Source: Candidatus Omnitrophota bacterium
Lineage (GTDB): Bacteria; Omnitrophota; Omnitrophia; Omnitrophales; Aquincolibacteriaceae
Assembly: GCA_030698625.1 (NCBI GenBank)
Contig: JAUYMS010000042.1
Span: 160,423 to 224,422, forward strand
Direction of reading: 5' to 3'
Length of the DNA stretch: 64,000 nucleotides
The notes under the pieces are model-generated. The model was not told where the DNA came from and did no database searches. It saw only the letters and a list, made by a program, of their open reading frames with translations. Of this stretch, positions 5,868 to 45,739 are shown piece by piece; positions within the stretch are counted from its first letter, which is position 1, and every line of letters starts with the position of its first letter. Made by a program: the position numbers and the translations under genes.

Positions 5868-8800
5868 TTAGACGATCGTGAATGTGCTGAGGTCAACGGT
5901 GACCGGACTGCTGGTGCCGTCTGCCTTGAGAAGGACATAACTCGCAAAATTCCCTATATAGCGGACTTGTGTGGCCGCCCCGGTCAATACGAGTTTCTGT
6001 CCCGTGTTGGGGTCAATGAGAATGGTTTTGTTGTAAGAGGCGGTCTTCATCGCTACGGTTACCACCAGACGGCCTGTCGTGATCACGTGCGCATCCGCGA
6101 ACGTCGTCTCAAACGGCGGATTCGTGCCGACAACCGGGGCTAACTCCTCGGCATGCAAGAGGGTCATATTCCTCGTACCGTTGGAGGTATCATAAACAAA
6201 CACCTCAGGAGTACCACCCAGGTATTCTGTATGGACAAGAATCGGTTCCCCGTCATCGATATAAACGCTGGCACCCTGTGTGAGCAACTTAAATCCGCCA
6301 AGCGTGGTCACCTTTGTCGCCGGATCAAAAGTTGTGGTTGCTGCCAGCACCGTACCCGTGAAATCGCTCGACTCCTGCAGGAGCAATATCTTGCCGTCTG
6401 CGAAATCGATACCCTTGAGCAATTCGCCGGCGCTCTGGGCCGTAGCGGTGAAAAGGTCCGCAGATGCGAGGTCTTTTATATAGAGGTCATAAGTGTCACC
6501 TTGCGGCCCGGAGGTCTTGGTGCTGTAGACGGCCCATTTGCCGTCCGGAGATACGTCATGAAGCGGCGAAAACGGGGAAGGCCCGCCTTTCGGAACCTCG
6601 ATAGTCAGAAGGTCAATGATGTTGAGCGACGGTCCCGAGGTGTCCAACAACTGCAAGGTGTAGCGGTCATTCGGGCCCGATATTACGACCACATCAACTT
6701 TGAAAGCAAAATCACTGTTCGACGGCGCGAGTTCCCATCCGGAAGGCACGGCCACGGGAACGTTTGTAAAATGCAGGTTCCCCTGCTGCCCATTCCCTTC
6801 AACGATGAAGAACATAAGCTGAACATTTGCCAAATCGATGCCCGCAAACTTCACCGGATCGATCTCCCACACCTGCTCGATATCGGAACGAATTCCATTC
6901 AGATGAACCGAGGCCTTCTTGCCCTGATTGTCGATAAGTTCGAGTTTAACGCGGCTGACATCCCCCATGAGACCCACGGTAAATTTTGAGAGGGTATCAA
7001 AACGTTTAGACCCGGGCGCAAAGGTATAGCCTCCGCCCGTCCATCCCTGCGTCCCCGTATTATAGGCCAGGGTCGTGCCGCGGCCCTGGTAATCCGCCAA
7101 GTTGGAACTTGCATCTCCACCGGGAGATACGCCTTGGATAAAGCCTGTCGGCGAACCGGCGCGGAAATCCACAAGATCATCCAAGCCCAGCGTGTCGGAG
7201 GGATAGACATCGAGATCCGGCAGGTAATTTATCTGCAGCGACCCCACTTCCTGCGGGCCTTCTACGATAAAGTAAATAATTCGAACTTTACTAAGGTCAA
7301 TACCGCCGAGGGCCGAGATGGGAATCTCAAAAACCTGCTCTTTGTCAGGATCTACACCCTCCAAGTAGAGGACCGATCGGTCCCCGCTTGAGTCGAGCAC
7401 TTCGACTTTAACGCGGCTGTTGGTACCCGACAGGTCCTGAAGACCAAAGGCTACCGATTGTAATCCGCTCCAATCGCCCGTTTCTTGGGCGGGATTCGTC
7501 GTAAAATCATCGTAACTAAATCCGCCGCCTGCCCAACCGGCACTCCCTGTATTGTATTCAAAGAGTACGCCTCGCGGCGTGGCAGTGGCCTTGTCGGTGG
7601 CGTTGCCGCCGGGACCGACTGAGGTTATTCCGGGCGCGCCGATCTGGCCGTTCGGAAGGCCGGGAAGATCCGCCGTCGTTAACGTTGTCGAAGGAGTAAT
7701 AACAACGTCCGGTTTGATGCGATTAACAGTCAAACTGCCGTCAATGTTATCCCCTTCCACCACCAGAATAACGAACCGCAGTTTGGTTAGATCAATCCCG
7801 GTAAAAGAAGACATCGGAACTTTCCAAATCTTCTCCTCGCCGGGAACAATGCCGCCTAGTAACACTGAAGACTTCGCTCCAAAAATATCTTCGAGCTCGA
7901 GCTTAACGGTGCCATGATCTCCGAACATACCGAGTACGAGGTTGGTAAAGCCGCTAAAATTGCTAGATCCCACGAAACCCGTCGTGAAATTGTCGAAAGA
8001 AAAGGCCCCGGCTGCCCAACCCGGTGTGCCGGTATCATAATTGATTTGCATACCACGAGCGGTTCCTGCCGTCGTTGACGTCGCATCGGTGCCTGCAGGA
8101 AAGATCGGAAAGGTGAAGGGCCCGCCGTCGGTACCCGCCGGAAACTCGGTGATAGCACGTCCCGTCAATGTAGGGTCGGGCTGAAGAGACGCCGGGGGCG
8201 CATCAATGGCAAAGTTAAAGGTATCCGACCAGAGGCTTCTCGGGCCGGTGTCAAAACTGTTATTCGCAGAGGCTCGTACTCGCACATAATACTGCCCCGC
8301 ATCCGTCACAGGCGCGACTTCTGAAGTTCCCGCCGGAAATCCATCATGGACAATGTCGTTGAAGGCCGGGTCTGTGGCCACCTGCACTTGATAGATCACG
8401 GCACCGCTGACCCCTGAAAAACCGATATCTCGGCCGCCTGATACAGGACCGGCGCCATTAACTGTCGGCTTCGACACAATAAAGGCATTCCGAATGACAT
8501 CAAACGAGAAGGTGTCCGACCACTGACTGAGCGGCCCCACCTCGATGAGGGGATCTTTAGAACCGAGAACGCGCACATAATAGGTTCCGTCCGTCAGAGC
8601 GTCCGTAGAAGGGATCGTCTCGGGCGAAGTGCCCGGGAATCCCTCGTGGATAATGTTGGTGAAACCGGAATCTGTGGCTACCTGAATCCGGTACTTTTGG
8701 GCGTCCTGGATCGGCGTGAACTGGAGTTCCGTTGCACCCTCATGATTCGTCACAGCCGCATCGACCGTCGTTTTTAACGCTGTGAAGGGATCCGGCCCGG

Positions 8801-10025
8801 AAGGCTCCGGAAGATAATAGTCAATACGACCGAGCCGGTTCGGCGAGAGGCCGCGGTCGATCTCAATAATGACTTCTGCGATCTGCGTCTTATCAAATAG
8901 ACCGTCGTCAACAAAGGTAATATAGAAATTGAGAAACACATCCGAGAGATTCATCTCATAGATTTGTTCGTTACCATCTTTATCTCTGACCCGCAAGCGC
9001 GCATCGGCATCGTTCCCGTTATTCTTCAGGGCCATGACCAGGGTACCCCCAAAATCAAAGTATTCATTGGACGCAGGCACGATCTCGGCAGTTACGGTAG
9101 CCCCCGCTGATCCACCGACGTCATAACGAAAACCCCGAATGCCGTCCGGTTGGTCATCGAAGGTAATGAAACCAGGCACCGAGCCTGCTCCGCGGATATA
9201 GGCCCCGGGACTGGCCGTGGTTCCTTGAGGAAACTCGCTTAGCAGCCCTTCGCTGAAGGCCGTCACACCGCCTGCCATCATCGGCACATCAACCCCGCCG
9301 ATGTGCACAAAAATCTCGCCGCGCCGGTCCTGCTGATACGTCGTCGGGTCTATGTCGGCAAAGGTCTGCCGCAAGACCATGCAGGTCACCGCGCCTTCAT
9401 TAAAATTCGAATCCTCGCTCAAATCAATGCTGTAGGTAAGATAGGTATCAGACAAAACGAGCCGCCGCGATGCTTGATTGCCCGTAGAATCAATAAAGAG
9501 GATGGTGAGTTCATCCACGCCGTCGGTGGTGATGTCAAAGTTTTCGCGTTTCAAACGAATGAGGAGAGGCCCGCCGCTTAGGTCCATCGTGGAATTCGCG
9601 CCGACACTGATCTCGGCATCGACCGTGGCGCCTGCGCCGGCACCCAGATCATAGCGATAAGAAAAGAAACTTTCGCTGAAAGGTTTAAACGTGGCGTATC
9701 CCGGTAAGTTCTCTTTGCCCGCCTGAGAATTGTACTTGTGTAATGTCAGCTCCGGATTGCCGGGCAATTTGGAGACGATCGTCGATCCGACTTCTCCATT
9801 GACCTGAGGCGGTGACAAAGGCCCTTCCTCAGTGCCGGCACCCGAAGGAACTTCGGGGTCGGATACACCCGGGTCCTTGCTGGGATCGACGGTCGGCTGC
9901 GGAACACCTGTTGGGCCTAATATTAAATCAGCGTAAGCGGTGGATTGGAATGAAAGCGGCAGTGAATAGAAGAGTAGTGTAAGGGATAAGGACAGTCTTA
10001 GTATTTTGTTTGCAGTAAAACCCAT
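5868..10025 (-). CDS. Giant secreted multidomain protein: signal peptide, Pro-rich linker, about five CBM-like beta-sandwich repeats, two FN3-like modules, and a C-terminal TolB/PD40-like beta-propeller
   Basis: 1385 aa with an N-terminal signal peptide. Repeated ~110-aa modules carry a Y(N/D)TGT(P/Q/S)GW(A/T)GG(G)FxxD(N)F motif. Two modules read YxVxVATDxxFxxIxHxGF. The C-terminus reads SPDGKWAVYS...DLYIKDL, which is PD40-like. Confidence 0.75.
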   Translation of the reverse strand: MGFTANKILRLSLSLTLLFYSLPLSFQSTAYADLILGPTGVPQPTVDPSKDPGVSDPEVPSGAGTEEGPLSPPQVNGEVGSTIVSKLPGNPELTLHKYNSQAGKENLPGYATFKPFSESFFSYRYDLGAGAGATVDAEISVGANSTMDLSGGPLLIRLKRENFDITTDGVDELTILFIDSTGNQASRRLVLSDTYLTYSIDLSEDSNFNEGAVTCMVLRQTFADIDPTTYQQDRRGEIFVHIGGVDVPMMAGGVTAFSEGLLSEFPQGTTASPGAYIRGAGSVPGFITFDDQPDGIRGFRYDVGGSAGATVTAEIVPASNEYFDFGGTLVMALKNNGNDADARLRVRDKDGNEQIYEMNLSDVFLNFYITFVDDGLFDKTQIAEVIIEIDRGLSPNRLGRIDYYLPEPSGPDPFTALKTTVDAAVTNHEGATELQFTPIQDAQKYRIQVATDSGFTNIIHEGFPGTSPETIPSTDALTDGTYYVRVLGSKDPLIEVGPLSQWSDTFSFDVIRNAFIVSKPTVNGAGPVSGGRDIGFSGVSGAVIYQVQVATDPAFNDIVHDGFPAGTSEVAPVTDAGQYYVRVRASANNSFDTGPRSLWSDTFNFAIDAPPASLQPDPTLTGRAITEFPAGTDGGPFTFPIFPAGTDATSTTAGTARGMQINYDTGTPGWAAGAFSFDNFTTGFVGSSNFSGFTNLVLGMFGDHGTVKLELEDIFGAKSSVLLGGIVPGEEKIWKVPMSSFTGIDLTKLRFVILVVEGDNIDGSLTVNRIKPDVVITPSTTLTTADLPGLPNGQIGAPGITSVGPGGNATDKATATPRGVLFEYNTGSAGWAGGGFSYDDFTTNPAQETGDWSGLQSVAFGLQDLSGTNSRVKVEVLDSSGDRSVLYLEGVDPDKEQVFEIPISALGGIDLSKVRIIYFIVEGPQEVGSLQINYLPDLDVYPSDTLGLDDLVDFRAGSPTGFIQGVSPGGDASSNLADYQGRGTTLAYNTGTQGWTGGGYTFAPGSKRFDTLSKFTVGLMGDVSRVKLELIDNQGKKASVHLNGIRSDIEQVWEIDPVKFAGIDLANVQLMFFIVEGNGQQGNLHFTNVPVAVPSGWELAPSNSDFAFKVDVVVISGPNDRYTLQLLDTSGPSLNIIDLLTIEVPKGGPSPFSPLHDVSPDGKWAVYSTKTSGPQGDTYDLYIKDLASADLFTATAQSAGELLKGIDFADGKILLLQESSDFTGTVLAATTTFDPATKVTTLGGFKLLTQGASVYIDDGEPILVHTEYLGGTPEVFVYDTSNGTRNMTLLHAEELAPVVGTNPPFETTFADAHVITTGRLVVTVAMKTASYNKTILIDPNTGQKLVLTGAATQVRYIGNFASYVLLKADGTSSPVTVDLSTFTIV

Positions 10026-20179: not shown

Positions 20180-21925
20180 ATGCCTGTCGCCTACGCCGAC
20201 TTATTGGGGGATACAAGCGACGAGGACCTTCTAGGTGAACGGAAGAGTGGAAGAGACACTGCCGACGCCACAGATTTAGATGACGCTCGCAAGGCGCACG
20301 AGGAGCTCTTTGCCGAGAATCGTTATCCGTCGGCCGCAACCTGCGCCACTTGTCACGCCAAGCAGTATCGCGAATGGTCGGTTTCTTCACACTCGTATTC
20401 ACAGCTCAGTCCGATCTACATGGCACTCAACAACACGATTAACGTGTTGGCGAGCGGTAGCAACGGCGATTTTTGTTTGCGCTGCCATAGCCAGGTCGGA
20501 GCAAACTTAGGCGAGAATCCCCGCATGTCGAATCTTGAGCGCCACCCGACATCCCGTGAGGGGATTACTTGTACCGTCTGTCACCGTATTAATAAGAAAT
20601 ATGATAAAGTCAGCGGCCGCATCGGCCTTGTTGAGGGCGGCCTGACCGAGCCCATCTATGGTCCTGGTGGCAACAAGATTCTTTCTGAGGTTCTGAGGGA
20701 CCCCAAGTTCAAAGTCGTAACCGATCCGAACCAGCCCGGCCGGAAAATTCACGACGAAGTTAAGTTCTTTGCGCCCATCTCCACATCAACGTTCTGCGGC
20801 TCATGCCATGACGTGACGCTTTTCAATGGCTTCCGTCTGGAAGAGGCCTTCAGTGAATACCGCATGTCCCCCGCGGCGCGGAAGGGCATTAGCTGTCAGG
20901 ATTGCCATATGGGCAAAGTTCAAGGTGTGGTCTCGGGTTATGATTTCGGACCGGCTGCGGTCGTGGGCGGCGTTCCTACCGAATCCAGAAAACTTACAAA
21001 TCATTTTTTTGCCGGTCCCGATTATTCCATCATTCACCCCGGCATCTTTCCTCACAACACCAAAGCTCAGGAGATGGCGACCTTGGAAGAGTGGCTGCGA
21101 TTTGATCACAAGGCCGGCTGGGGTACTGATTCTTTTGAAAATAAAGTCCCGCGCGATTTCAAATTTCCCGACCGCTGGCAGGCCCTTGACGACCGCTATG
21201 ACGCTCGCGCAATCCTCAACGATCAGTTCGAACTCCTGGCATGGGCGCGCGAACGACGGTTAGAGGCCTTGCGCAATGGGTACGGCCTCGGCGAGATCAT
21301 AATCAAGAAAGCGACGTCTTCAGGCATCAAGTTTAAGGTAGAGGTGAAAAACTTGACCAATGGCCACAACGTACCCACCGGGTTCACGGGTGAGCGGCCG
21401 GTTTGGCTTGATGTAACGGTCACCGACAGCGCCGGAACTGTCGTATTTCGGTCGGGCGACCTGGATCCTAACGGAGATTATCGCGACGACCATTCTTCGT
21501 ATGTGCGAACCGGCCGAGTACCTCTCGATACGCATCTATTCACGCTGCAATCGAAGTTTGTGGTCTCCAACATACGCGGGTCAGAGCGCGAACGCGTTAT
21601 CCCTATTCCCTACCCTCTTACGTCCCTTCCGCGCGTGCTGCCCGCACCGCAGTCTTTAGTGATCACGGGCGAGCCGTTTACCGAACGCAATCATCATAAG
21701 GGGATTCAGCCCGATGGTCGCCGCTGGGCGATGTATAAGGTGAAGGCCAAAGCCCTTACCGGGAAAAGTCCTTATAAGGCGAATGTCAAGTTGTGGAATG
21801 CGATGGTGCCGGTCAATCTTGTCGAAGCCATTCAATGGGTCGGGTTTGACTACGGGATGAGCGCCCGCGAAGTCGCCGATAACCTCCCAAAAAGAAATAC
21901 TATGGGAAAAGGATATTGTCATTAA
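20180..21925 (+). CDS. Pentaheme c-type cytochrome: five CxxCH motifs in the N-terminal ~240 aa, then a ~340-aa heme-free C-terminal domain
   Basis: CATCH, CLRCH, CTVCH, CGSCH, CQDCH. No signal peptide follows the annotated ATG, but the 27 codons in-frame upstream encode one (see findings). Confidence 0.8.
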   Translation: MPVAYADLLGDTSDEDLLGERKSGRDTADATDLDDARKAHEELFAENRYPSAATCATCHAKQYREWSVSSHSYSQLSPIYMALNNTINVLASGSNGDFCLRCHSQVGANLGENPRMSNLERHPTSREGITCTVCHRINKKYDKVSGRIGLVEGGLTEPIYGPGGNKILSEVLRDPKFKVVTDPNQPGRKIHDEVKFFAPISTSTFCGSCHDVTLFNGFRLEEAFSEYRMSPAARKGISCQDCHMGKVQGVVSGYDFGPAAVVGGVPTESRKLTNHFFAGPDYSIIHPGIFPHNTKAQEMATLEEWLRFDHKAGWGTDSFENKVPRDFKFPDRWQALDDRYDARAILNDQFELLAWARERRLEALRNGYGLGEIIIKKATSSGIKFKVEVKNLTNGHNVPTGFTGERPVWLDVTVTDSAGTVVFRSGDLDPNGDYRDDHSSYVRTGRVPLDTHLFTLQSKFVVSNIRGSERERVIPIPYPLTSLPRVLPAPQSLVITGEPFTERNHHKGIQPDGRRWAMYKVKAKALTGKSPYKANVKLWNAMVPVNLVEAIQWVGFDYGMSAREVADNLPKRNTMGKGYCH

Positions 21926-23451
21926 TGTCGCCCTGTAAAGGACATTCCGCTTATTACAAGGTTCTGTGTTGTTTTATCGCAGCGGCGATGCTTGTTTCCG
22001 TCCCTCTGCCCCGCTTAGGTTGGGCCGGAGGCGAACATGGCGGAATGGAGCACGGCGGAAGTGAATTTAAAGAACTCCATTCTAATTGGTACGACCCCTT
22101 TTACCCGTTGGGGCAGACGAAGGGTGCTAGCCGGCTCTCTGATGTGCCGGTTCCTTTTCAGGGAGTTGACAAGATACCGCCCCGCCCCAAACTCCATTTG
22201 GAACTCGGAGATCCGTTTCTGGATTCCGGTAATCTCTTCCCGGGTTTTGAATTACCTACGGGAGCCGTTTGGCAGCCGCGTCTTTGGAGTTACATGATTT
22301 ACCGTACCGCCCTACACTCTTTCGAGGTCAACGCGGATAGCCGGACATCGGAATGGGTCCATCGCTTGGACACGTATACTTCCTTGCAGCTGACGGGAAC
22401 CGAAAGAATTTTGGTTTCATTCCGCCCACTCGATAAGAACCGCTTTGATCAGTTTACGCGCTTTGATCTCGAAGATCCCAATAATGACGAGGGCTTCCGC
22501 CAGGAATTCAACTTGAATTTGCGTGCCCTTTTCATGGAAGGTGATATGGGTAGTCTCTTTCCCTTTTTAGATCCCGAGGGCATGCGGCCCATGGATTTCG
22601 GCTTTTCTGTCGGCCGTCAGAACCTCAACTTTCAAGATGGCATTATGCTCAATGACGACATGGATGCCTTGGCAATCGTGCGTAACAATATACGTATTCC
22701 CGCCATCGGTATCTCCAATTTGCGCATAACCGGTATGTGGGCCTGGAAAGGCAATGACCGCGGCGGCGGCATCACACCGCCAAACCGCCGTAGTCCGGAA
22801 GCCGATGTCTTTGGTTTATTCAATTCAGCTGATTTCCACAAGAGCACTATTAACATCGACGGTATCTTCATTTCGGATAATAAGACCAACGGCGGTGATG
22901 CCTTCTATACCGGGGTCTCGTCAATTCAGCGCATGGGTGCCTTCAATACAACGTTCCGCTGGCTGGGATCATATGCCGAAGATTCTACGACGCCGCAGAC
23001 AGGCTCGGGCCAGCTGCTGACGGGAGAAATATCCTGGACTCCGCATTCTTCAGACGACGTTGTCTATTTCAACCCCTTCATAGCCTTTGGCAATTACACG
23101 CAGGCAGGCCGCGAACCTATTCTTGGCGGTCCCCTAGCCCCACTCGGCATTCTCTTTGCATCACCGAATCTCGGCGATTATCGCGGCGAGATCGGCGGGG
23201 CCGCTCAAGATGTCTTTGGCGCGGCAACTGGTTATCAGGCCTTCTGGAATGATCACCACACCAACCTTGTCTTGGAGACCTCTTTCCGCAAGGATTATGG
23301 CGGACGCGGCACAGGCGTTTGGGGCGCTGGTTTTCAGTTGCAGCAGAAATTAGGTCAGCATGTCCAACTTCAGTTTGAAGCCTTCGCCTCTCTGCAAGAA
23401 AACCGCAAACGCGGTTACGGGGGACGTTCGGAAATTCTACTTGTATTCTAG
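21916..23451 (+). CDS. Outer-membrane beta-barrel protein (porin-like), likely partner of the flanking cytochromes
   Basis: N-terminal signal peptide. His/Gly-rich GGEHGGMEHGG segment. Alternating amphipathic beta-strand pattern. C-terminal ...SEILLVF with a terminal Phe, the OMP signature. 10-nt overlap with the upstream cytochrome. Confidence 0.6.
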   Translation: MSLMSPCKGHSAYYKVLCCFIAAAMLVSVPLPRLGWAGGEHGGMEHGGSEFKELHSNWYDPFYPLGQTKGASRLSDVPVPFQGVDKIPPRPKLHLELGDPFLDSGNLFPGFELPTGAVWQPRLWSYMIYRTALHSFEVNADSRTSEWVHRLDTYTSLQLTGTERILVSFRPLDKNRFDQFTRFDLEDPNNDEGFRQEFNLNLRALFMEGDMGSLFPFLDPEGMRPMDFGFSVGRQNLNFQDGIMLNDDMDALAIVRNNIRIPAIGISNLRITGMWAWKGNDRGGGITPPNRRSPEADVFGLFNSADFHKSTINIDGIFISDNKTNGGDAFYTGVSSIQRMGAFNTTFRWLGSYAEDSTTPQTGSGQLLTGEISWTPHSSDDVVYFNPFIAFGNYTQAGREPILGGPLAPLGILFASPNLGDYRGEIGGAAQDVFGAATGYQAFWNDHHTNLVLETSFRKDYGGRGTGVWGAGFQLQQKLGQHVQLQFEAFASLQENRKRGYGGRSEILLVF

Positions 23452-23503
23452 ACAGCCCATACCGTATTGCTATTTCATATCAGTCAAACGAAAGGATAAT
23501 CAT

Positions 23504-24511
23504 ATGCGTCTCTTTACCGCACTGTTATCTGCCATAATATTTTTTGCGAGTCCTGCGACAGCCGCGCAGATGTGGGATCCCATCGCCGATAACGAAAAAA
23601 TTACCGGCCCGGAATCCTGTGCGGAATGTCATGCAGACACCTTTCGAGTCTGGGAAGGGATGCATCACGCCACCACGTTTCGGGATATGCCTCGAAGTGA
23701 CGCGGCCCGTGAAATAGCCGATAAATTGGGCATTCAACGCATCAAAACCGAGCCCTTGTGTCTCAGCTGCCATTTTACGACGATGCTAACGGATACGGGA
23801 AAATCTAAGCCCGTGTCGGGTATTTCCTGTGAATCTTGTCACGGGGCCGGAAAGGATTGGATCAACGTCCACAGTGACTATGGCCCGGGAGCCGATAAGG
23901 ACACAGAGTCTGCTGATCACCGCGCCAAGCGACTTGCCGATTCCGAAGCCGCGGGTATGATTCGTCCGAGAAATCTGCACGCCTGGGCCTCCAATTGCTA
24001 CAACTGTCATACCGTGCCCGACGAAAAACTCGTAAACATGGGGGGACACCCCGCCGGAAGTAAGTTTGAACTTGTGTCCTGGTCTCAGGGAGAAGTGCGC
24101 CATAATGTCTGGTTTTCCGGCGGTGTGGACAATGTAATGGCTACACCCGAACGCAAACGCGTCATGTACGTTACCGGTCAGGCCCTCGACCTCGCATATG
24201 CCCTGCGCGGTCTTTCTAAAGCCACCGAAGGCGCCACCTATGCAATCACCATGGCGAAGAGGGCCAAGGCGGCAATGATCCGTCTCGGACAAATTGATGA
24301 AGCCCTTACCATTCCCGAAGTAAAAGAAATCCTTAAAGTTGCCGACGCCGTCAAGCTCGATCTCAATAATGAGGCTCAGTTGTCCGGCGCCGCTGACGAC
24401 GTTGCAAACCAGGCATTAAAATTTACTGAGGCCCATGACGGAAGTGCGCTTGCCGCATTGGACTCCCTCATTCCTTCGCCGGACGCCTTCCGCGGAACTC
24501 CCGCTGCCTAA
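23504..24511 (+). CDS. Tetraheme c-type cytochrome, secreted
   Basis: Start placed at MRLFTALLSAIIFFASPATAA (signal peptide, RBS AAAGGA upstream). CAECH, CLSCH, CESCH, CYNCH. The track ORF starts further upstream at 23360, inside the OMP gene. Confidence 0.8.
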   Translation: MRLFTALLSAIIFFASPATAAQMWDPIADNEKITGPESCAECHADTFRVWEGMHHATTFRDMPRSDAAREIADKLGIQRIKTEPLCLSCHFTTMLTDTGKSKPVSGISCESCHGAGKDWINVHSDYGPGADKDTESADHRAKRLADSEAAGMIRPRNLHAWASNCYNCHTVPDEKLVNMGGHPAGSKFELVSWSQGEVRHNVWFSGGVDNVMATPERKRVMYVTGQALDLAYALRGLSKATEGATYAITMAKRAKAAMIRLGQIDEALTIPEVKEILKVADAVKLDLNNEAQLSGAADDVANQALKFTEAHDGSALAALDSLIPSPDAFRGTPAA

Positions 24512-24659: not shown

Positions 24660-25856
24660 ATGGAAAATAAATTCTCCCATATTGAAAAGAGGAAATACCG
24701 ACGCAAGCCGACATCCGTGGCTGTCCGTTCCCTAAAAGAGGCGAAACGCGGCCTTTGGAAGCGCGCAAAGGCACTTGATCTTTCAGATACCGGCATACGC
24801 ATTTCCCTGCGCGAAGCGCCCGCTAAGGGAAGCCGCGTGCACCTCTCGCTCAAGTCAGAGCAAGGCAGCCGCCGCAGGCGTGTGGACGGGAAGGTTGTGT
24901 GGAAAAAGGGGCTGGAATGCGGCATACAATTTGAAAACCTTCGAGGAACTCCGAACAACGAGAAGTTGCTATTCTACATGGGCGACCGCATGTGTGAGTT
25001 TGTCGTCAAGTCAGCAGGATCCAATCTTGTCGCGCTGCCCGTTACAACGCTCACGGAGCACAAGGCCGCGTATCGGTTGATGTATCGAGAGTATCTGGCG
25101 CGGGGCTACTGCGCTAAACACGCGTCGAAGATGTACTATACTTCATACAGCTTGCTTCCCACTTCACGCACTTTTATTCTGAAGCAGCAAAAGCATCTCA
25201 TTGGGACGTTGTCCCTCTTTGTGGATTCACCCTGTGGACTTCCCATGGACCACACGGCCCCCGAAGTGACCGGCCAGCTACGCTTTCAGGGGCGACGCGT
25301 TGCAGAGGCAAGCCTCCTTGCCCTTGACCCAAACGCCTTTCGTGAGGGCACTCCCCCGCTTACCTACGCGCATCGCCTCGCGGGTTCCTTCTGGCTGTTC
25401 AAGACTTTGCTGGATTATGCGCGCCAAATCGCCGACGTTACGGATCTCGTCGTAACGGTGCACCCTAACCATGAGCACCTTTACCGCAACCTGGCATTCA
25501 AATCCATAAAACCCGCGACACCCTACGTCTTTGCCCGCGGCCATTTGGGGCTCCCGATGCATTTGGATGTGCGAGAGCTCGAGGCCCATCTTCCCGTCGG
25601 CACATGTTTTAAAAAATTCTTTTTCGACAATCTCCTGCCGTTAGATCAGCTAGCGAAGACTTACCGCTGGACGCCGGTTGCACTAAGTGACTTTATCAAC
25701 AAGCGGCAGGCAGAATGGCCCCAGATGATGCAGGGGGCCGTAGAATGGCTTAAGAGACGTTACCCGCTCGTGGCAGCCAGGACACGGCAAAAGAGCCACA
25801 AGACATCTGGTCTAAATGACAAAGGAGAGCCGCAGCTCTCCTTTGTCGGTATCTGA
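24660..25856 (+). CDS. PilZ domain fused to a FeeM/AHL-synthase-like N-acyl amino acid synthase domain (GNAT-related)
   Basis: N-terminus RKYRRKP...DLSDTGIRIS matches the PilZ RxxxR / D-x-S-x-G-G c-di-GMP-binding motifs. The C-terminal ~270 aa include AAYRLMYREYLARGYC, resembling the conserved core of exosortase-associated N-acyl amino acid synthases (TIGR03694-like). Confidence 0.55.
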   Translation: MENKFSHIEKRKYRRKPTSVAVRSLKEAKRGLWKRAKALDLSDTGIRISLREAPAKGSRVHLSLKSEQGSRRRRVDGKVVWKKGLECGIQFENLRGTPNNEKLLFYMGDRMCEFVVKSAGSNLVALPVTTLTEHKAAYRLMYREYLARGYCAKHASKMYYTSYSLLPTSRTFILKQQKHLIGTLSLFVDSPCGLPMDHTAPEVTGQLRFQGRRVAEASLLALDPNAFREGTPPLTYAHRLAGSFWLFKTLLDYARQIADVTDLVVTVHPNHEHLYRNLAFKSIKPATPYVFARGHLGLPMHLDVRELEAHLPVGTCFKKFFFDNLLPLDQLAKTYRWTPVALSDFINKRQAEWPQMMQGAVEWLKRRYPLVAARTRQKSHKTSGLNDKGEPQLSFVGI

Positions 25857-25882
25857 TTTTTTAAACGGTCGCGGTTGCTCTA

Positions 25883-26221
25883 TTAAAGATCGACTCCGTT
25901 ATTGGGAATCGGAACATCAAGCGGAATAGGAAAAGTCACTACATGAACAGCTCCCAATGCCGTATAAACGATGGCATTCCAAAGCCCTTCGCCAAACCCT
26001 TCTATCTGAGGCCGATCTTCAGCCGCAGCGGCTGTCGTCTGGGTAAATATCTCGGACCATCCGAAAACCACATTCTTTAAGCCGAACTGCAGCTTGCTCA
26101 CTGATTTCGCATAATAGTCTGCCTCTTCAGTCCACGGGCTCGCTGCCATAGCCGGAACCTGGACCGCAAGGCAAGCCACAAACACCACCAACGTAATAGC
26201 AAAAATCTTTTTCACTGACAC
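25883..26221 (-). CDS. Small secreted protein, TIGR04073-like (exosortase-system-associated family)
   Basis: 112 aa with a signal peptide. Twin G(L/F)xN(v)vxGW(S)EI(F/P)-type motifs: FGLKNVVFGWSEIF and FGEGLWNAIVYTALG. Confidence 0.4.
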   Translation of the reverse strand: MSVKKIFAITLVVFVACLAVQVPAMAASPWTEEADYYAKSVSKLQFGLKNVVFGWSEIFTQTTAAAAEDRPQIEGFGEGLWNAIVYTALGAVHVVTFPIPLDVPIPNNGVDL

Positions 26222-28427: not shown

Positions 28428-29447
28428 CTAGGTTTTAAGTACGATGCGATAGCGCGCCTTATTCTGAGCAACTTTTTCGAAAGCTTGATTCACATCCTTA
28501 AGGGCCACGACCTCTACTTCCGCCTCTATAGAGTGGCGTGCCGAAAACTCCAGCATCTCACGAATTCTCGTCCTGCTTCCAATCATGCTCCCGCATATTG
28601 TTTTCTGCCCAAGGACAAGCGGCAGCGCGGAAATACTCATTGGCTCCGGCGGAACCCCAACAATACAGAGTGACCCAAGCGGACGTTACGCGACGAGATA
28701 ACTCTGCCAGTCCAAACTGACATTGACCGTAGAAATAATGAAATCCAGTGATCCCTTCGCCGATTCCATCTGTTTCGCATCCCTGCTCAAAATAAATCGA
28801 TGAGCACCTAGCCTCTTCACTTCTGCTTCTTTAGAAGCGGACGAAGAGAAGGCTGTCACTTCACATCCGAAAGCACGCGCGTACTTAACAGCGAGGTGCC
28901 CGAGGCCGCCAATGCCCACAACACCGACCTTCATATTGGATGTTACATGATACTGACGCAGCGGAGAAAAAACCGTGATGCCTCCGCATAATAGCGGCGC
29001 CGCCCCTTCCGAGGACAGATTATCCGGTATTGCAAAGGCAAAACGGCTGTCTAATCGAATTCGATCGGCATACCCCCCGAATCGCCCGACACAGGTCGCC
29101 TGATTCTGTGAGCACAATTGTTCTTCGCCCCGGTCGCAATACTCGCAAGACCAGCAAGATCCGCACTGCCAGCCGACACCAACACGCTGGCCGTCTTCAA
29201 ACTGATTCACTTCCGGCCCCCTCTGGGCGATTGTCCCTACGACTTCATGGCCCGGCACCAAAGGATAGGTGCTGAAACCCCAATCGTTCTTTACCAGGTG
29301 CAAATCGCTATGGCATATGCCGCAATGGGTAATCGCGATTTCAATATCCCATGATCCCAAAACACCCGGTTCATAATCAAATTTACTGAGCGAAGCTCTT
29401 TGTTCTAAGGCAGCATAAGCATGAATCTGTGTCGCAGTCTTTTGCAT
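28428..29447 (-). pseudogene. Zn-dependent alcohol dehydrogenase (YahK / cinnamyl-ADH type) interrupted by an in-frame TAA at 28686..28688
   Basis: Track ORFs 28686..29447 and 28428..28640 are in the same frame. Read across the stop: ...DFIISTVNVSLDWQSYLVA*RPLGSLCIVGVPPEPMSISALPLVLGQKTICGSMIGS.... This is collinear with YahK (GHEVVG, GVVGIGGLGH). The stop sits where homologs have Lys/Leu. Confidence 0.75.
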
Positions 29448-41443: not shown

Positions 41444-42304
41444 TCAGGCCTTCGAGGCTGAAGCGGGGTCTTCGTCTCTGGGAAACCACGGAATAAACAT
41501 GTTGGTCGATCTTTGATAACGAAGATACTCATCTCCCCTCGACCGAATAGCTTGTTCCTCTGCCTTCGGAATACCGGTTACATTAAAGAGGAAGTGCAGA
41601 ATAAGTGCGGGGCAGGCAATAACCAGGATGCCGAACGGAGATCCCAAAGAATAGATAAATAAGGCGCACCAGATAAGAAATTCAAAGAAATAGTTCGGAT
41701 GACGCGAATAGAACCACAACCCTTCGCGACACGTCTTCCCTTTGTTTTCAGGATTCGATTTGAAATTCTCGAGCTGCAAGTCGGCAATGCTCTCTCCCGC
41801 GAAGGCCGCCACCCACAGGACAAAACCGAGGCCCTCAAAAAACACAAGCCCCGGACGCACATTATGCGAGGCGATAATAAAAGGAAGCGATAAAAGCGCC
41901 GCCACGGCACCCTGAAGGAGAAAAAAGATAAGCAGTTTCCTTTCTTTCTCTTCACCCCATTTATTTAAAAGCTCCGCGTATCGCGGGTCCTCACCTTTTC
42001 CGGCGACTCGCTTAAATAAGATAAAAAAACCCAATCGCATCCCCCAAAAAACCCCCATAACCGTAACAAAAAACCTGCGCCACTCATAACCCTCGCCCAA
42101 AGTGCCAAAAAAAATCGCCAGAAGGGCTATGAGACCGGCCCATACAGGGTCGACGATACTCGCCTTCTTGATGCGCACCGAGACAAACCACAACGCTGCC
42201 ATTATAGGGAGCGTAATAAACAGAGCCTGGATCAGACCACCAATAGCAAATCCCACTTTGACCTCCTTATCCCTTAGGACTGGCTTGTGAAAGCAGCTTG
42301 TCAC
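41444..42304 (-). CDS. DUF1295 / steroid-5-alpha-reductase-like (ICMT-fold) membrane protein
   Basis: Multi-TM. C-terminal GLWFYSRHPNYFFEFLIW, the signature of the DUF1295 / 3-oxo-5-alpha-steroid 4-dehydrogenase family. Confidence 0.65.
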   Translation of the reverse strand: MTSCFHKPVLRDKEVKVGFAIGGLIQALFITLPIMAALWFVSVRIKKASIVDPVWAGLIALLAIFFGTLGEGYEWRRFFVTVMGVFWGMRLGFFILFKRVAGKGEDPRYAELLNKWGEEKERKLLIFFLLQGAVAALLSLPFIIASHNVRPGLVFFEGLGFVLWVAAFAGESIADLQLENFKSNPENKGKTCREGLWFYSRHPNYFFEFLIWCALFIYSLGSPFGILVIACPALILHFLFNVTGIPKAEEQAIRSRGDEYLRYQRSTNMFIPWFPRDEDPASASKA

Positions 42305-43727
42305 GCAACTTACCGCTCAAGGCCCATTCAGACACCCAGATGCCGAAATAGGCACGCGCAAAATCTTCGCCCGGGACTATCGCCTTTTCCACGCCGTTTA
42401 AGAGCAGCGAGGTTCCGCGTTCCGGTTCATAGCGCAATTCATAGCGATCGCCCTTTTCGACATCCTCATAGGCATCATTAATGATTCGAAGACGGTCTCG
42501 AATTGCCTGCAGGTTGACGGTAGGGTTCTTTCCAAGCGCCCGGTCGGCTGCCTTTACAAATTGCGGCTGTTTTAAACCGCGATGGTATTCAATAACTAGC
42601 GACATAGGTACTTCTCCGAGGACCTGATCCTGTGCGGCCACATCCGCAGGAAGATATAAAGCCGCGGTATACACGTCCAACGTGAGAAACTCCAGTAATC
42701 CTATTCCCCGCAACGGCAAGGCATTGCCGGCTACGGCTGTCGTGCTTTCAAAGCAAGAGTTATTAAGACACTGCCCTTCGGCAGCGGAAGCGGCAAAAAC
42801 CTGTGCGGGTGTAAGTAGAACCATGAGAACCAGCGCCGCTGCGATTGCATGCTTGGATACCGCCCGCGCTTCCTCATAGATATCCTGTGGCGGCCTTCTC
42901 AGATCCCAAACAACCCCTATCCACGATAGGGCCGTCAACACATAATGGGTCACGTCAATCTCCCACCAATAAAATCCCTGCCGTTCCGAAGACGGGCATC
43001 TGTGATGATTATTGTGCCAGCCCTCGCCCATCGTTAAAAGGGCAACCCAGATATTATTACGACCATCATCTTTATTCGCAAAACGTTTTGATCCAAACAA
43101 ATGGCTGAAAGAATTCACCGCAAAGGTCACGTGGAAAAGAAAGACCGTACTGATAAAAAATCCCCAGACGATTACCTGACCAGCCGTTAATCCGATATCC
43201 GGCGCAAAACGTTCGAGACAAATTCCGAGAACTGCCACTACGGAAAAAAAGAATAAGGCCGGGATTTTTTGATTGCGATTCAGATACCGCAGTTCCGGGT
43301 ATACCGCAAAGTCGGCCACGTGAGGGTCGGGATGAAGGTTTGCGTGCTTCTTTGTCATGAACCATCCCACATGGGACCAGAAGAAACCATGAATGATGGG
43401 CGAATGCGGATCCAGTTCGGTATCCGCATAGCGATGATGATTCCGATGATGCGCGGCCCACCACAGAGCATCCTTCTGCAAGGAACAGGCTCCGAGAAAA
43501 GCCAGTATAAACTGGAATATCCGTGATGTTTTAAACGAGCGATGTGAGAAATACCGATGATAACCCGCCGTTAGCCCGAACATCCGCGGTAGCAGGGTTA
43601 CCAGAAATACAACGATAGCCGCACCGCTCATACCCGTAACAAAGGCAAGCAGACACCCCGCGTGCATCAACACAAAAGGGACATTTCCCCAAAACTCAAT
43701 AGTCTCCTCTTTCGGCCGGGGACTCAA
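42267..43727 (-). CDS. Membrane fatty-acid desaturase (stearoyl-CoA-desaturase type His boxes) fused to a C-terminal chalcone-isomerase-like domain
   Basis: HRYFSH, HRNHHRY and HNNHH boxes in the first ~280 aa. The last ~190 aa have no TM segments (LGEVPMSLVIEYHRGL...). Confidence 0.7.
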   Translation of the reverse strand: MSPRPKEETIEFWGNVPFVLMHAGCLLAFVTGMSGAAIVVFLVTLLPRMFGLTAGYHRYFSHRSFKTSRIFQFILAFLGACSLQKDALWWAAHHRNHHRYADTELDPHSPIIHGFFWSHVGWFMTKKHANLHPDPHVADFAVYPELRYLNRNQKIPALFFFSVVAVLGICLERFAPDIGLTAGQVIVWGFFISTVFLFHVTFAVNSFSHLFGSKRFANKDDGRNNIWVALLTMGEGWHNNHHRCPSSERQGFYWWEIDVTHYVLTALSWIGVVWDLRRPPQDIYEEARAVSKHAIAAALVLMVLLTPAQVFAASAAEGQCLNNSCFESTTAVAGNALPLRGIGLLEFLTLDVYTAALYLPADVAAQDQVLGEVPMSLVIEYHRGLKQPQFVKAADRALGKNPTVNLQAIRDRLRIINDAYEDVEKGDRYELRYEPERGTSLLLNGVEKAIVPGEDFARAYFGIWVSEWALSGKLRDKLLSQASPKG

Positions 43728-45739
43728 ATGGGTAGCGATTCCACGCGCACTGCTGCTTCCGGTTTCCTGTCTAAGGAGCGGTTACCGGTTCGCGATAGTA
43801 CCAACTGAAGATCGTTCAAGTGCCTCGCTTCGAATGCGGCCTCGCAATATGAAAAATAATACTGCCACACCCGCAGGGTCTTACGGGAGAAACCGAGCGC
43901 CTCCGCCTGTGTCTTTTGTTCCAGCAAGCGCTCCCGCCACAGGGCAAGTGTCCGCGCGTAATGGGGGCCTATATTATCCAACTCTTCGACATAAAAGGAA
44001 GAAGATTGAGTCATTGCTCGGCAGAGCGCTGAAAGCGACGGGAGATGTCCCCCGGGGAAAATATACTTTTGAATCCAGTCGCAACCCCTCCTGTAGGAAT
44101 CGTAACGCTGATCGGGGATGGTAATCACCTGGAGCACCACAACGCCGTCGGGTTTGAGCAACTCGTCGAAGCGCTTAAATAATTTGCCTAAATGCTCCCG
44201 GCCTACGGCTTCCAACATTTCAATGGATACAATGCGGTCAAACTTGCCCCGGACATGCCGGTAGTCGCAGAGTTGAATATCAATGCGGTCGCTGTACCCG
44301 GCCTCGTCAATCCGTTTGCGCGCAAACGCGAGCTGTTCTTTGGAGAGGGTGATTCCCGTAACCCGGCACCCGGTCGTGCGTACCGCCTCAATAGCAAAGG
44401 CACCCCATCCGCATCCGATCTCAAGCACGTGATCTTGCTCTGAGATCCTTGCCTTTCGCAAGATAGACCGAATTTTATTTTTCTGGGCCGCAGCCAAGTC
44501 CCCCCCCTCTTTTTCGAATTGACCGCAAGAATACGTCATGCTCTTATCCAGAAAGAGCTCATAGAAATTATTGCTTAAATCATAATGCGCTTCAATGTTT
44601 CTTTTACTACCTCGAACGGTATTTCCATGCCTCAAATGCCGCCAGCGATTAAGCCTTGCGCCGAGCTCCTCCAGGAGGGAGACCTTCCTCTCAAGATAAG
44701 GTTTATTATCAACCAGCAGTCCAATCACCGCCGTCACGTCGGATGAGTCCCAATCCTGTTCTACATACCCTTCACCAAAACCGATGCCGCCATCCCGCAC
44801 AATACGGCAGAAAAAATTATAGTCCCGGATTCGAATAACCGCTTTCTTGCCCGCTTCACTGCCGCCCCATGTTTCCGAGCGGCCATCCGGGTACGTAAGC
44901 GTAAGGGATCCTCGCCTGATCTTCGAAAGATAGCGTAGAACAATTCGCATAGCAATACGCTGTAAAAAGTTGGGGAGCGCGGTTCGTATGGTCATAGGGT
45001 TATCTACCGGGGGTTTCTTGAACACACTAATTTTTTTACCGTAAAAAAGTTTGGCCGCCTGGATATGGATGCGTGGTAACGTCATGACGGCCGTCATCGG
45101 GTAGCGGAGGAGAGTCCCGACAAGATTTGCCGTCGTAATTGGGACGGCGTTCCCCCACCAGCGTGAAACCAATGCAGCGTGTCCCTCTCGAAACAAGTTG
45201 ACCTGAAGATCTGCCTCAGCGCCCAACGACGAGAGTTTAAATTCGTACTCTCCCGCCCTGTCAAAGAAGGGCGAGACGTGGAAAACCTTTGGCGCTCGGT
45301 AATGGCCGTCTTTGGCCGAAAAATTATCCTTTAAGATATAGAGGTGTGTCTCGCCAAACGTATTGCTCACTTCGGCAACGGCACAGCCTAACTTTCCGCC
45401 TGAAGTATAGCAATAATAGAAACTTGCCGGGTTAAAAATCGTTCCCAGAAAACGGGCACAGGTGACAAGTTCTACGCGGGCAATACCTCGCGCACAATCA
45501 TGCGCTTCGAGAAATCGGAGCAGTTTCTCTTTTGTAGTACCCGGCCCTCGGTCAAGATAGTCTTTATCGTAAAGAGACACAACGCCGAAGTGATTATAGG
45601 AAAATAGCCGCACGCCCTCAGCGAGAATCGGCAGTTCGTCTAGATCGAACACGTAGAAATAGCTGGGGTACTCAAACTTATGCTGCACCGGTTGTAGACG
45701 CGCATGCATCAAAGTACCGCGATAGATGCGTGAGTTCAT
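43724..45739 (-). CDS. DUF1365 N-terminal domain fused to a cyclopropane-fatty-acyl-phospholipid-synthase-like C-terminal domain
   Basis: N-terminus YRGTLMHARLQPVQHKFEYP... is DUF1365-like. The C-terminus has LEIGCGWGAF...SIEMLEAVG, the CFAS motifs. Confidence 0.75.
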   Translation of the reverse strand: MNSRIYRGTLMHARLQPVQHKFEYPSYFYVFDLDELPILAEGVRLFSYNHFGVVSLYDKDYLDRGPGTTKEKLLRFLEAHDCARGIARVELVTCARFLGTIFNPASFYYCYTSGGKLGCAVAEVSNTFGETHLYILKDNFSAKDGHYRAPKVFHVSPFFDRAGEYEFKLSSLGAEADLQVNLFREGHAALVSRWWGNAVPITTANLVGTLLRYPMTAVMTLPRIHIQAAKLFYGKKISVFKKPPVDNPMTIRTALPNFLQRIAMRIVLRYLSKIRRGSLTLTYPDGRSETWGGSEAGKKAVIRIRDYNFFCRIVRDGGIGFGEGYVEQDWDSSDVTAVIGLLVDNKPYLERKVSLLEELGARLNRWRHLRHGNTVRGSKRNIEAHYDLSNNFYELFLDKSMTYSCGQFEKEGGDLAAAQKNKIRSILRKARISEQDHVLEIGCGWGAFAIEAVRTTGCRVTGITLSKEQLAFARKRIDEAGYSDRIDIQLCDYRHVRGKFDRIVSIEMLEAVGREHLGKLFKRFDELLKPDGVVVLQVITIPDQRYDSYRRGCDWIQKYIFPGGHLPSLSALCRAMTQSSSFYVEELDNIGPHYARTLALWRERLLEQKTQAEALGFSRKTLRVWQYYFSYCEAAFEARHLNDLQLVLSRTGNRSLDRKPEAAVRVESLPI

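Follow-up and report, generated by a model that had tools for sequence, protein, structure and literature searches.

Fusions of a synthase for N-acyl amino acids (NAS) with a PilZ domain are known from Nas354 and Nas343, whose product in E. coli is N-acyltyrosine (Thies et al. 2016, Sci Rep 6:27035; PMC4897644). Nas354 by itself yields this product and the E103A substitution abolishes the phenotype; regulation of the activity of both enzymes by c-di-GMP is a proposal of the same study (PMC4897644). Since Nas354 worked in E. coli with c-di-GMP left unmanipulated (PMC4897644), its PilZ domain may be no strict switch. As cited in PMC4897644, NasP is a NAS directly activated by cAMP (Clardy & Brady 2007), and a subset of NASs is linked to exosortase systems (Craig et al. 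2011). Searches of the literature on the PilZ+FeeM and PilZ+GNAT architectures, on TIGR04073, and on Omnitrophota together with c-di-GMP found nothing beyond the study of Thies et al. (2016).

An earlier note on the DNA examined here had regarded the PilZ-synthase architecture as undescribed. This does not stand, as the NAS+PilZ fusion, in the reverse order and with the same c-di-GMP proposal, was published in 2016 (PMC4897644). Since the concept has been published, together with a functional enzyme made of these two domains, the gene adds a variant and a phylum to a published design, and no new concept. A response to c-di-GMP is not known for any NAS.

The PilZ-FeeM (N-acyl amino acid synthase) fusion gene occupies positions 24660..25856 (+ strand) of the window, i.e. 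the whole 64-kb stretch of DNA that was analysed, and encodes a protein of 398 aa. A convergent gene, encoding 112 aa, lies at 25883..26221 (− strand), and both ORFs are thus located where the earlier note had placed them. The 398-aa protein is identical to an NCBI MAG protein (P0001) with the database title [quoted passage not shown]. Both the PilZ and the FeeM match exceed the Pfam gathering scores, and the two domains are real, with agreement between Pfam, the FeeM sequence of known structure and an AlphaFold model that is confident (AF2; pLDDT 80, pTM 0.70). Promoter and terminator scans around both genes gave nothing usefully above shuffled background, and no Rfam match to a known RNA element, e.g. 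a c-di-GMP riboswitch upstream, was found in the whole 64-kb window.

The PilZ domain (residues 9–98; 24684..24953, + strand) matches PF07238 with 49.6 bits against a gathering cutoff of 22.5. In the AF2 model its strands, at residues 18–91, form a six-strand β-barrel, and residues 9–98 gave Foldseek matches to the PilZ domains of Alg44 (4rt0_B, E 4.5e-5) and BcsA (9fp0_A). Two motifs predicted to bind c-di-GMP were read from the sequence: RxxxR (R11-K-Y-R-R15; 24690..24704, + strand), placed in a flexible N-terminal tail, and (D/N)xSxxG (D40-L-S-D-T-G45; 24777..24794, + strand). They are separated by 24 residues, the canonical PilZ spacing being about 20–30. Alignment of seven homologues with an N-terminal PilZ domain (“PilZ-first”) showed that R11 and R15 are invariant, as are S42 and G45, with D or N at position 40 in all seven. 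Residues 1–16 have a pLDDT below 50, as expected for the tail of an unliganded PilZ domain. By profile, motif pair and barrel fold, the 398-aa protein has a canonical PilZ domain of the c-di-GMP-binding type, which bears out the earlier assignment made from the RKYRR and DLSDTG motifs. Among the wider set of PilZ-first relatives, both motifs are retained in 43 of 51; the strict pair is absent from the other eight, an observation that counts against c-di-GMP gating.

The FeeM-type NAS domain, of GNAT fold (residues 136–303; 25065..25568, + strand), covers the full PF21926 model (1–158) and scores 114.2 bits, the gathering cutoff being 27. FeeM of known structure (2g0b) can be aligned with residues 129–285 (phmmer, E 1e-8), and 2g0b is also the top fold match of the domain (Foldseek, TM 0.84–0.86 normalised to target, E 2e-12). 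The earlier call of a FeeM-type, GNAT-fold synthase is thus confirmed in both sequence and fold. The active-site segment KLAEV of FeeM lines up with RVAEA of the 398-aa protein, giving E216 (codon 25305..25307, + strand), which is invariant in 17 homologues. This residue, equivalent to Glu95 of FeeM and Glu103 of Nas354, is the predicted catalytic glutamate; the role of the corresponding residue is taken from the Nas354 study (PMC4897644).

Two additional segments were recognized outside the PilZ and FeeM domains. A conserved linker helix (residues 107–118, FYMGDRMCEFVV; 24978..25013, + strand), seen in the alignment and in the AF2 model, also occurs in relatives without PilZ. Beyond the FeeM fold, the AF2 model contains a C-terminal helical extension (residues 304–381; 25569..25802, + strand), whose profile matches 78 of 161 relatives, PilZ-bearing or PilZ-less.

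These 161 retrieved sequences comprise the best 150 representatives at 50% identity together with 17 homologues from the first search. The PilZ-first architecture was found in 51 of them, two with tandem PilZ domains, and is almost confined to MAGs of Candidatus Omnitrophota; the PilZ-FeeM fusion is conserved across many lineages of this phylum. Proteins with the opposite order (NAS followed by PilZ) constitute a large separate clade from Bdellovibrionia, Burkholderiales, Chitinimonas and Deltaproteobacteria. Both orders carry combined PF07238 and PF21926 tags in public protein collections. In a neighbor-joining tree of FeeM domains, the PilZ-first clade (107 leaves) contains no PilZ-last proteins and the PilZ-last clade (113 leaves) no PilZ-first proteins. 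Since the two orders separate into different clades, they look like independent fusions in this tree, and the joining of the same two domains on two separate occasions would argue for genuine functional coupling. PilZ-less relatives with 44–48% identity also fall within the PilZ-first clade (P0010, verified as contig-internal), which indicates that the synthase works without PilZ and counts against c-di-GMP gating.

With slightly better than even probability, the 398-aa protein is a synthase of N-acyl amino acids that depends on acyl-ACP and is gated in its activity by c-di-GMP. Homology to FeeM and Nas354 predicts its acyl donor and product type; for the binding of c-di-GMP and the allosteric control of the synthase, we infer the following course. 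With E216 as putative catalytic base, the enzyme would acylate a free amino acid on its amino group, acyl-ACP being the donor of the long chain. The N-terminal PilZ domain would most likely bind c-di-GMP via R11xxxR15 and D40xSxxG45. The flexible N-terminal tail would become ordered upon binding, and the barrel and linker helix (107–118) might then shift against the synthase domain. The output of lipo-amino acid would in this way track the cellular level of c-di-GMP. As the AF2 output came without an inter-domain error estimate, the proposed PilZ-synthase interface is without structural backing. In BcsA and Alg44, c-di-GMP bound to the PilZ domain activates the associated biosynthetic enzyme, and by analogy activation is the favoured direction of control. 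The suggestion of the earlier note that c-di-GMP controls lipo-amino-acid synthesis is therefore retained as the best reading, its gating step being the inferred part.

Gene neighbourhoods were compared among the retrieved loci, and a metagenome scan with the 7-sequence alignment added 12 mostly short loci. Tandem PilZ-FeeM genes in sister loci of Omnitrophota stand in one run with genes for a MacB-type ABC protein, a LolA-like protein and a DUF1302 outer-membrane barrel; this exporter set adjoins the tandem genes in L012–L015, a context that fits an exported lipid product. In L004 and L012, tandem PilZ-FeeM genes lie directly 3′ of a PilM/secretin operon. The cytochrome genes upstream were considered as partners in a conserved operon, an idea that was rejected because no other locus has this arrangement. 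Similarly, the 511-aa barrel-like ORF of the window showed no relationship to the DUF1302 barrel near other PilZ-FeeM genes.

The same neighbours would suit a different role for PilZ, namely that of an adaptor, c-di-GMP-dependent or ligand-independent, which brings the synthase to a site on the membrane or to a partner without tuning catalysis. A machine for envelope export or type IV pili could be such a partner, in line with known PilZ-mediated protein-protein interactions. Both the PilM/secretin operon preceding the tandem genes and the exporter set beside them speak for this role. However, none of these neighbours was found among the scanned ORFs around the window copy, a covalent enzyme fusion arising twice independently is more simply read as direct control of the enzyme, and the retention of the motifs in most PilZ-first relatives suggests that ligand binding matters. 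An adaptor role thus seems possible but rather improbable. Nor need the product be an N-acyl amino acid, since the synthase may acylate another amine or make another product, such as an OlsB-like ornithine-lipid-type precursor or a LuxI/LasI-like AHL-type signal. LasI is the next fold match after 2g0b, identity to FeeM is only 24–26%, the amino-acid substrate is not readable from sequence, and the lipid-transport genes in sister loci would suit a membrane lipid too. Against this, the FeeM model of Pfam is matched at four times its cutoff, Pfam and NCBIfam scans of the 398-aa protein gave no match to Autoind_synth or OlsB-type models, and every FeeM motif (GT.S…D…GLPMD…R…AE) is conserved in the alignments. 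The sole characterised PilZ-fused relative makes N-acyltyrosine (PMC4897644). A product of another kind is considered unlikely.

The convergent gene (25883..26221, − strand) encodes a secreted two-helix-hairpin protein of 112 aa (110 aa with the NCBI start, two codons later). The stop codons of the two ORFs are 26 bp apart, and their convergent orientation implies that they are not co-transcribed. The predicted signal peptide (…VPAMA, followed by ASPW…) agrees with the secretion proposed earlier. The AF2 model (pLDDT 87) consists of this peptide and helices 36–67 and 72–95; its fold is a generic helical hairpin, for which the PDB gave no significant match. The protein is homologous to the TIGR04073 family, with which it shares similar size, a signal peptide and the GxxNxxxGWxE motif; the description “TIGR04073-like” holds (E 3.8e-10), whereas membership by the curated cutoff does not (39.7 bits, cutoff 50). 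The “twin” motifs of the earlier note proved a generous term, since the exact motif occurs once (G47–E57) and the second copy (G79LWN…G90) is degenerate. All 37 scanned members of the subfamily match TIGR04073, all below the cutoff of 50 and none above 39.7 bits, and they have their own invariant termini (AASPW at the N-terminus, TFPIPxDxPLPNNG at the C-terminus). On these sequence features, the 112-aa protein belongs to a sister subfamily of TIGR04073.

The earlier note had also described the synthase as of the kind linked to PEP-CTERM/exosortase systems. An NCBIfam scan at E<=0.1 returned only a partial match to PRK14852 and one to TIGR02266, and none to TIGR03694 (the inclusion of this model in the release is assumed). 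No exosortase, PEP-CTERM tail or GGDEF/EAL domain was detected in 28 Pfam-scanned ORFs or in a regex scan of the 404 window ORFs. The remark that the window has no exosortase gene was thus correct for the ORFs scanned, and the link to exosortase systems is not borne out. The absence of diguanylate cyclase and phosphodiesterase genes from the scanned ORFs is a separate observation, which counts against c-di-GMP gating.

The synthase and its TIGR04073-like neighbour could nevertheless form a functional pair of a PEP-CTERM/exosortase system encoded elsewhere in the genome. A profile of 59 relatives of the small protein plus the L006 protein was run against all ORFs of the retrieved loci, and its only matches beside a FeeM gene were those of the window and L006–L008. 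At the latter, a second and non-syntenic locus, a PilZ-less gene of the FeeM clade is accompanied by a convergent TIGR04073 member scoring 63.4 bits, above the cutoff of 50. By a rough estimate, two adjacencies in about a dozen loci are more than expected by chance, and an exosortase-linked subset of NAS genes is known (as cited in PMC4897644). The small proteins of the window and L006 gave no phmmer match to each other, and pairwise BLASTP detected 27% identity (E 6e-6). In L010–L017, the sequence up to 10 kb from the FeeM-clade gene contains no relative of the small protein, nor do the flanks (up to 5 kb) of the metagenome loci L024–L035; three relatives of the window's small protein that lie on long contigs (L019, L021, L022) have housekeeping neighbours and no FeeM gene nearby. 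Together with the lack of a TIGR03694 match and of exosortase or PEP-CTERM genes in the window, this makes such a pair very improbable, and a functional link of the 112-aa protein to the synthase is doubtful. Conserved pairing of the two genes was rejected as a candidate feature, since it recurs in one other distinct locus only, and is left as a weak hint.

Independent fusions in opposite orders would provide good comparative evidence that c-di-GMP really controls NAS chemistry, and the two orders would be ready-made natural variants on which to test this cleanly by biochemistry. The gene would also open a first functional access to the output of c-di-GMP in Omnitrophota, which has no cultured representatives in the data set. 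A more far-reaching and rather speculative idea, which we think improbable in full, is that lipo-amino-acid synthesis is governed by c-di-GMP as a general principle with at least two origins, one in Omnitrophota (PilZ-first) and one in Proteobacteria and Bdellovibrionota (PilZ-last). The Omnitrophota PilZ-FeeM enzymes, often tandemly duplicated beside MacB/LolA-like/outer-membrane-barrel export and type IV pilus genes, would then make a surface- or membrane-active N-acyl amino acid, exported within a c-di-GMP-governed programme of surface attachment or host interaction. In the window, this system would be represented by a single gene standing alone.

Compared with known systems, the window protein shares only the broad FeeM/NAS superfamily with the PEP-CTERM/exosortase-associated acyltransferases of TIGR03694, from which it differs in the scan result and genomic context given above. 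With BcsA and Alg44 it shares a PilZ barrel of canonical type that bears the RxxxR and DxSxxG motifs; in those proteins membrane polysaccharide synthases are controlled, whereas the module here is a soluble GNAT-fold acyltransferase. NasP, as described in PMC4897644, provides a precedent for the proposed logic, in that a nucleotide second messenger controls NAS activity directly; it uses cAMP and another sensor domain, a distinction drawn from its description and not from its sequence. With FeeM (2G0B) and the type I long-chain NASs NasY1 and NasY2, the protein has in common fold, motifs, the catalytic Glu and a presumed acyl-ACP substrate. FeeM, however, is a single-domain protein of ~190 aa encoded inside a biosynthetic cluster, to which the window protein adds the N-terminal PilZ domain, the conserved linker helix and the C-terminal helical extension of ~80 aa.

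The closest parallel is with Nas354 and Nas343, which likewise combine a type I (FeeM-like) NAS containing a catalytic Glu with PilZ in one polypeptide of ~400 aa, encoded by stand-alone genes outside any biosynthetic operon. N-acyltyrosine is the product of Nas354, whereas the product type of the window protein is deduced from homology. The order of the domains is reversed, with NAS at 1–200 and PilZ at 279–394 in Nas354 as against PilZ at 9–98 and NAS at 136–303 here. The same layout as in Nas354 was found in the Nas354-like protein P0300 (FeeM 69–227, PilZ 326–416), and the Nas354 active-site peptide GQIAEVSAL is matched exactly in P0300 and in a second PilZ-last protein, P0297. The FeeM domain of P0300 is ~31% identical to that of the window protein and falls in a different clade of the FeeM tree, the Nas354-like proteins coming from Proteobacteria and Bdellovibrionota and the PilZ-first form from Omnitrophota.

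The two ORFs lie exactly where the earlier note had placed them: the PilZ-FeeM fusion gene (398 aa) at 24660–25856 on the forward strand and the gene of the 112-aa small protein at 25883–26221 on the reverse strand, with 26 bp between the stop codons of these convergent ORFs. A protein identical to the 398-aa product is already present at NCBI ([quoted passage not shown], 253-kb contig). The Pfam PilZ model matched residues 9–98 with 49.6 bits (gathering score 22.5), and the Pfam FeeM model matched residues 136–303 with 114.2 bits (gathering score 27). The canonical PilZ signature is present, RxxxR (R11-K-Y-R-R15) being followed 24 residues on by (D/N)xSxxG (D40-L-S-D-T-G45), and alignment revealed that R11, R15, S42 and G45 are invariant in all seven of the PilZ-first homologues (PilZ followed by FeeM) found first. 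[quoted passage not shown] In the alignment, "RVAEA" of the window protein stands opposite the FeeM active-site "KLAEV"; its Glu (E216) does not vary among the 17 homologues, nor do the GT.S, D…G.P and R208 positions that FeeM shares. According to PMC4897644, catalysis depends on this Glu (Glu95 of FeeM, Glu103 of Nas354), and the phenotypes of Nas354, a NAS-PilZ fusion, are lost with E103A.

The AlphaFold2 model of the 398-aa protein (pLDDT 80, pTM 0.70) consists of a disordered N-terminal tail carrying RxxxR (residues 1–16), a beta-barrel (18–91), a disordered connector (95–105), a conserved helix (107–118), a GNAT-type alpha/beta domain (123–303) and a helical C-terminal extension (304–381; window positions 25569–25802, forward strand). 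The extension, which has no assigned family, is conserved and common to PilZ-first and PilZ-less relatives (its profile matches 78 of the 161 classified sequences). In a Foldseek search against the PDB, the top six matches were FeeM (TM 0.84–0.86, normalised to target; E about 2e-12), with the AHL synthase LasI next, and the N-terminal part matched Alg44 (with c-di-GMP) and BcsA through their PilZ domains. The previously proposed PilZ and FeeM-type synthase domains are thus upheld by Pfam, the 2g0b match, the diagnostic residues and the predicted folds.

When 1.84 billion representatives at 50% identity were searched exhaustively with a profile, 252 proteins were obtained at E≤1e-30. The best 150 of these, together with 17 homologues from the first search (161 distinct sequences), were classified by sub-profiles: 51 are PilZ-first and the remainder are FeeM proteins without PilZ. 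Both c-di-GMP motifs are kept in 43 of the 51 PilZ-first sequences, and two (P0026, 510 aa; P0049, 507 aa) carry a tandem PilZ-PilZ ahead of FeeM. Among genome assemblies, this order was found almost exclusively in Candidatus Omnitrophota MAGs. Proteins with PilZ last form a separate, larger family, from which P0015 (FeeM 52–209, PilZ 308–391) retrieved 159 proteins of Bdellovibrionia, Burkholderiales, cultured Chitinimonas and Deltaproteobacteria. Two members of this family, P0297 and P0300, contain an exact copy of GQIAEVSAL, the peptide at the Nas354 active site as deduced from the published mutagenic primer; the FeeM domain of P0300 is 31% identical to that of the window protein. When 271 FeeM domains were placed in a neighbour-joining tree, built without bootstrap support and from sampling steered by two queries, the smallest clade to include 90% or more of the PilZ-first proteins numbered 107 leaves, none of them PilZ-last; its counterpart for 90% or more of the PilZ-last proteins numbered 113 leaves, none of them PilZ-first. 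The separation of the two orders into different FeeM clades of this unbootstrapped, two-query tree suggests two independent fusions.

The window protein is, on balance, probably an acyl-ACP-dependent NAS in which the N-terminal PilZ domain couples output to c-di-GMP. The synthase domain would make an N-acyl amino acid from acyl-ACP, and the PilZ domain would sense c-di-GMP and adjust synthase output. The analysis shows the two domains with their folds, binding motifs and catalytic residue, and that evolution has maintained the fusion; the substrates, c-di-GMP binding and the allosteric coupling with its sign are predicted by analogy with FeeM and Nas354, canonical PilZ proteins (BcsA, Alg44) and the cAMP-activated NasP. 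It is rather unlikely that PilZ serves for localisation or as a partner adaptor, and quite improbable that the enzyme is an acyltransferase with a different product.

The small protein has a Sec-type signal peptide, to which its model (pLDDT 87) adds a hairpin of two helices, with no significant match among PDB folds; Pfam has no family for it. The earlier note had called it TIGR04073-like, with twin GxxNxxxGWSEI-type motifs: homology to this exosortase-associated model is evident (E 3.8e-10), but the score (39.7 bits) falls under the cutoff of 50, and one GxxNxxxGWxE motif is exact whereas the second is degenerate. In its well-defined subfamily (59 relatives), an invariant AASPW follows the signal peptide and the C-terminus carries TFPIPxDxPLPNNG. 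TIGR04073 matched all 37 members scanned, none of which bettered the score of the window protein. Longer paralogues of 164 and 206 aa (L022, 6168–6662, and L021, 2658–3278, both reverse strand) lie within 1–2.5 kb of 113-aa copies; therefore, the family can be multi-copy and clustered.

It is highly improbable that the synthase gene and this neighbour work as a pair linked to an exosortase system. At one other distinct locus (L006–L008), the gene of a PilZ-less FeeM protein of the same clade (P0010; 44% identity) likewise faces a small convergent gene, whose product belongs to TIGR04073 with 63.4 bits (cutoff 50); by a rough judgement, such adjacency exceeds chance expectation. However, spans of up to 10 kb around the FeeM-clade gene of L010–L017, and flanks of up to 5 kb in metagenome loci, contained no small-protein relative, and three small-protein relatives on long contigs are surrounded by unrelated housekeeping genes. 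No match of the enzyme to the exosortase-associated acyltransferase model TIGR03694 was reported at E≤0.1. Scans of the window (28 ORFs by Pfam, 404 by regex) detected no exosortase or PEP-CTERM tail, in line with the absence of an exosortase gene in the earlier note, and no GGDEF or EAL genes. The assignment of the synthase to an exosortase/PEP-CTERM-linked type was therefore not sustained by the model scan or by the scanned ORFs of the window, and the mostly negative evidence leaves the pairing a weak rival. In L006 (7045–8872, reverse strand), P0010 and the convergent TIGR04073 member are followed by a PAS-PAS-GGDEF diguanylate-cyclase-type gene; c-di-GMP synthesis is encoded there beside a synthase without its own PilZ.

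The PilZ-FeeM gene of the window stands alone. Directly upstream, also on the forward strand (20180–24511), are a 581-aa multihaem cytochrome (20180–21925), a 511-aa protein without Pfam or NCBIfam match, whose …EILLVF end is like that of an outer-membrane barrel (21916–23451), and a second multihaem cytochrome, c554-like (23360–24511). This run, no member of which recurred next to homologues in the loci compared, resembles a porin-cytochrome extracellular electron-transfer module, unusual for Omnitrophota if so. Five other Omnitrophota loci contain tandem pairs of PilZ-FeeM paralogues of about 420 aa each (L012, 9609–12028; L013, 8297–11152; L014, 1803–4678; L015, 4112–6958; L016, 5446–8248). 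Beside the pair in L012, L013, L015 and partly L014 are genes of an ABC ATPase, a permease of MacB/FtsX type, a LolA-like protein and an outer-membrane barrel with DUF1302; after the pair of L013 come a weak AsmA-like match and a protein with DUF1318. The set is found on one side of the pair in L012 and on the other in L013, so the association has outlived a rearrangement. The set is a candidate export route, and this context is in keeping with a lipid that the family would make for the envelope, with no bearing on the window copy itself. In L004 (726–4600), from an Omnitrophota MAG, a tandem pair stands immediately after PilM-like and secretin genes (type IV pilus or type II secretion-like) on the same strand, directly followed by a ThiF-family gene. 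The first ~140 residues of NCBIfam PRK14852 (a 989-aa "hypothetical protein" model) match the window FeeM domain with 66 bits. Larger FeeM fusions may exist.

Elsewhere on the reverse strand of the window, a Zn-dependent alcohol-dehydrogenase-like gene (28428–29447, 339 codons) has one in-frame TAA at codon 254 (…SYLVA*RPLGSL…), where TTA (Leu) would suit; it represents a nonsense pseudogene or, alternatively, an error in the assembly. A 1385-aa ORF with a signal-like N-terminus (5868–10025) had no Pfam match at E≤0.001. A lipid-modification gene run (41444–50149) includes a DUF1295/steroid-reductase-like gene, a fatty-acid desaturase fused with a chalcone-isomerase-like domain, a DUF1365–cyclopropane-fatty-acid-synthase fusion and, one ORF beyond the latter, a 1048-aa MFS, spermidine-synthase-like and TPR protein.

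A single paper of relevance came out of the literature search (Thies et al. 2016, Sci Rep 6:27035; PMC4897644); it describes the NAS-PilZ fusions Nas354 and Nas343, and in it Nas354 alone produced an N-acyltyrosine biosurfactant in E. coli. Its authors proposed that NAS activity is under PilZ regulation, giving as precedent NasP, a cAMP-activated NAS as cited there. The domain combination, considered undescribed in the earlier note, is thus published; for the PilZ-first order, no description was found in the searchable literature. The main value of the window fusion lies in the comparison of the two orders, which argues that N-acyl amino acid synthesis may have come under c-di-GMP control twice in evolution and makes a simple biochemical test worthwhile. 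In Nas354-type fusions NAS is N-terminal (1–200) and PilZ C-terminal (279–394), whereas the window protein has the opposite order; relative to this published kind of enzyme, the reversed order, the probable independent fusion and the centre in Omnitrophota are new.
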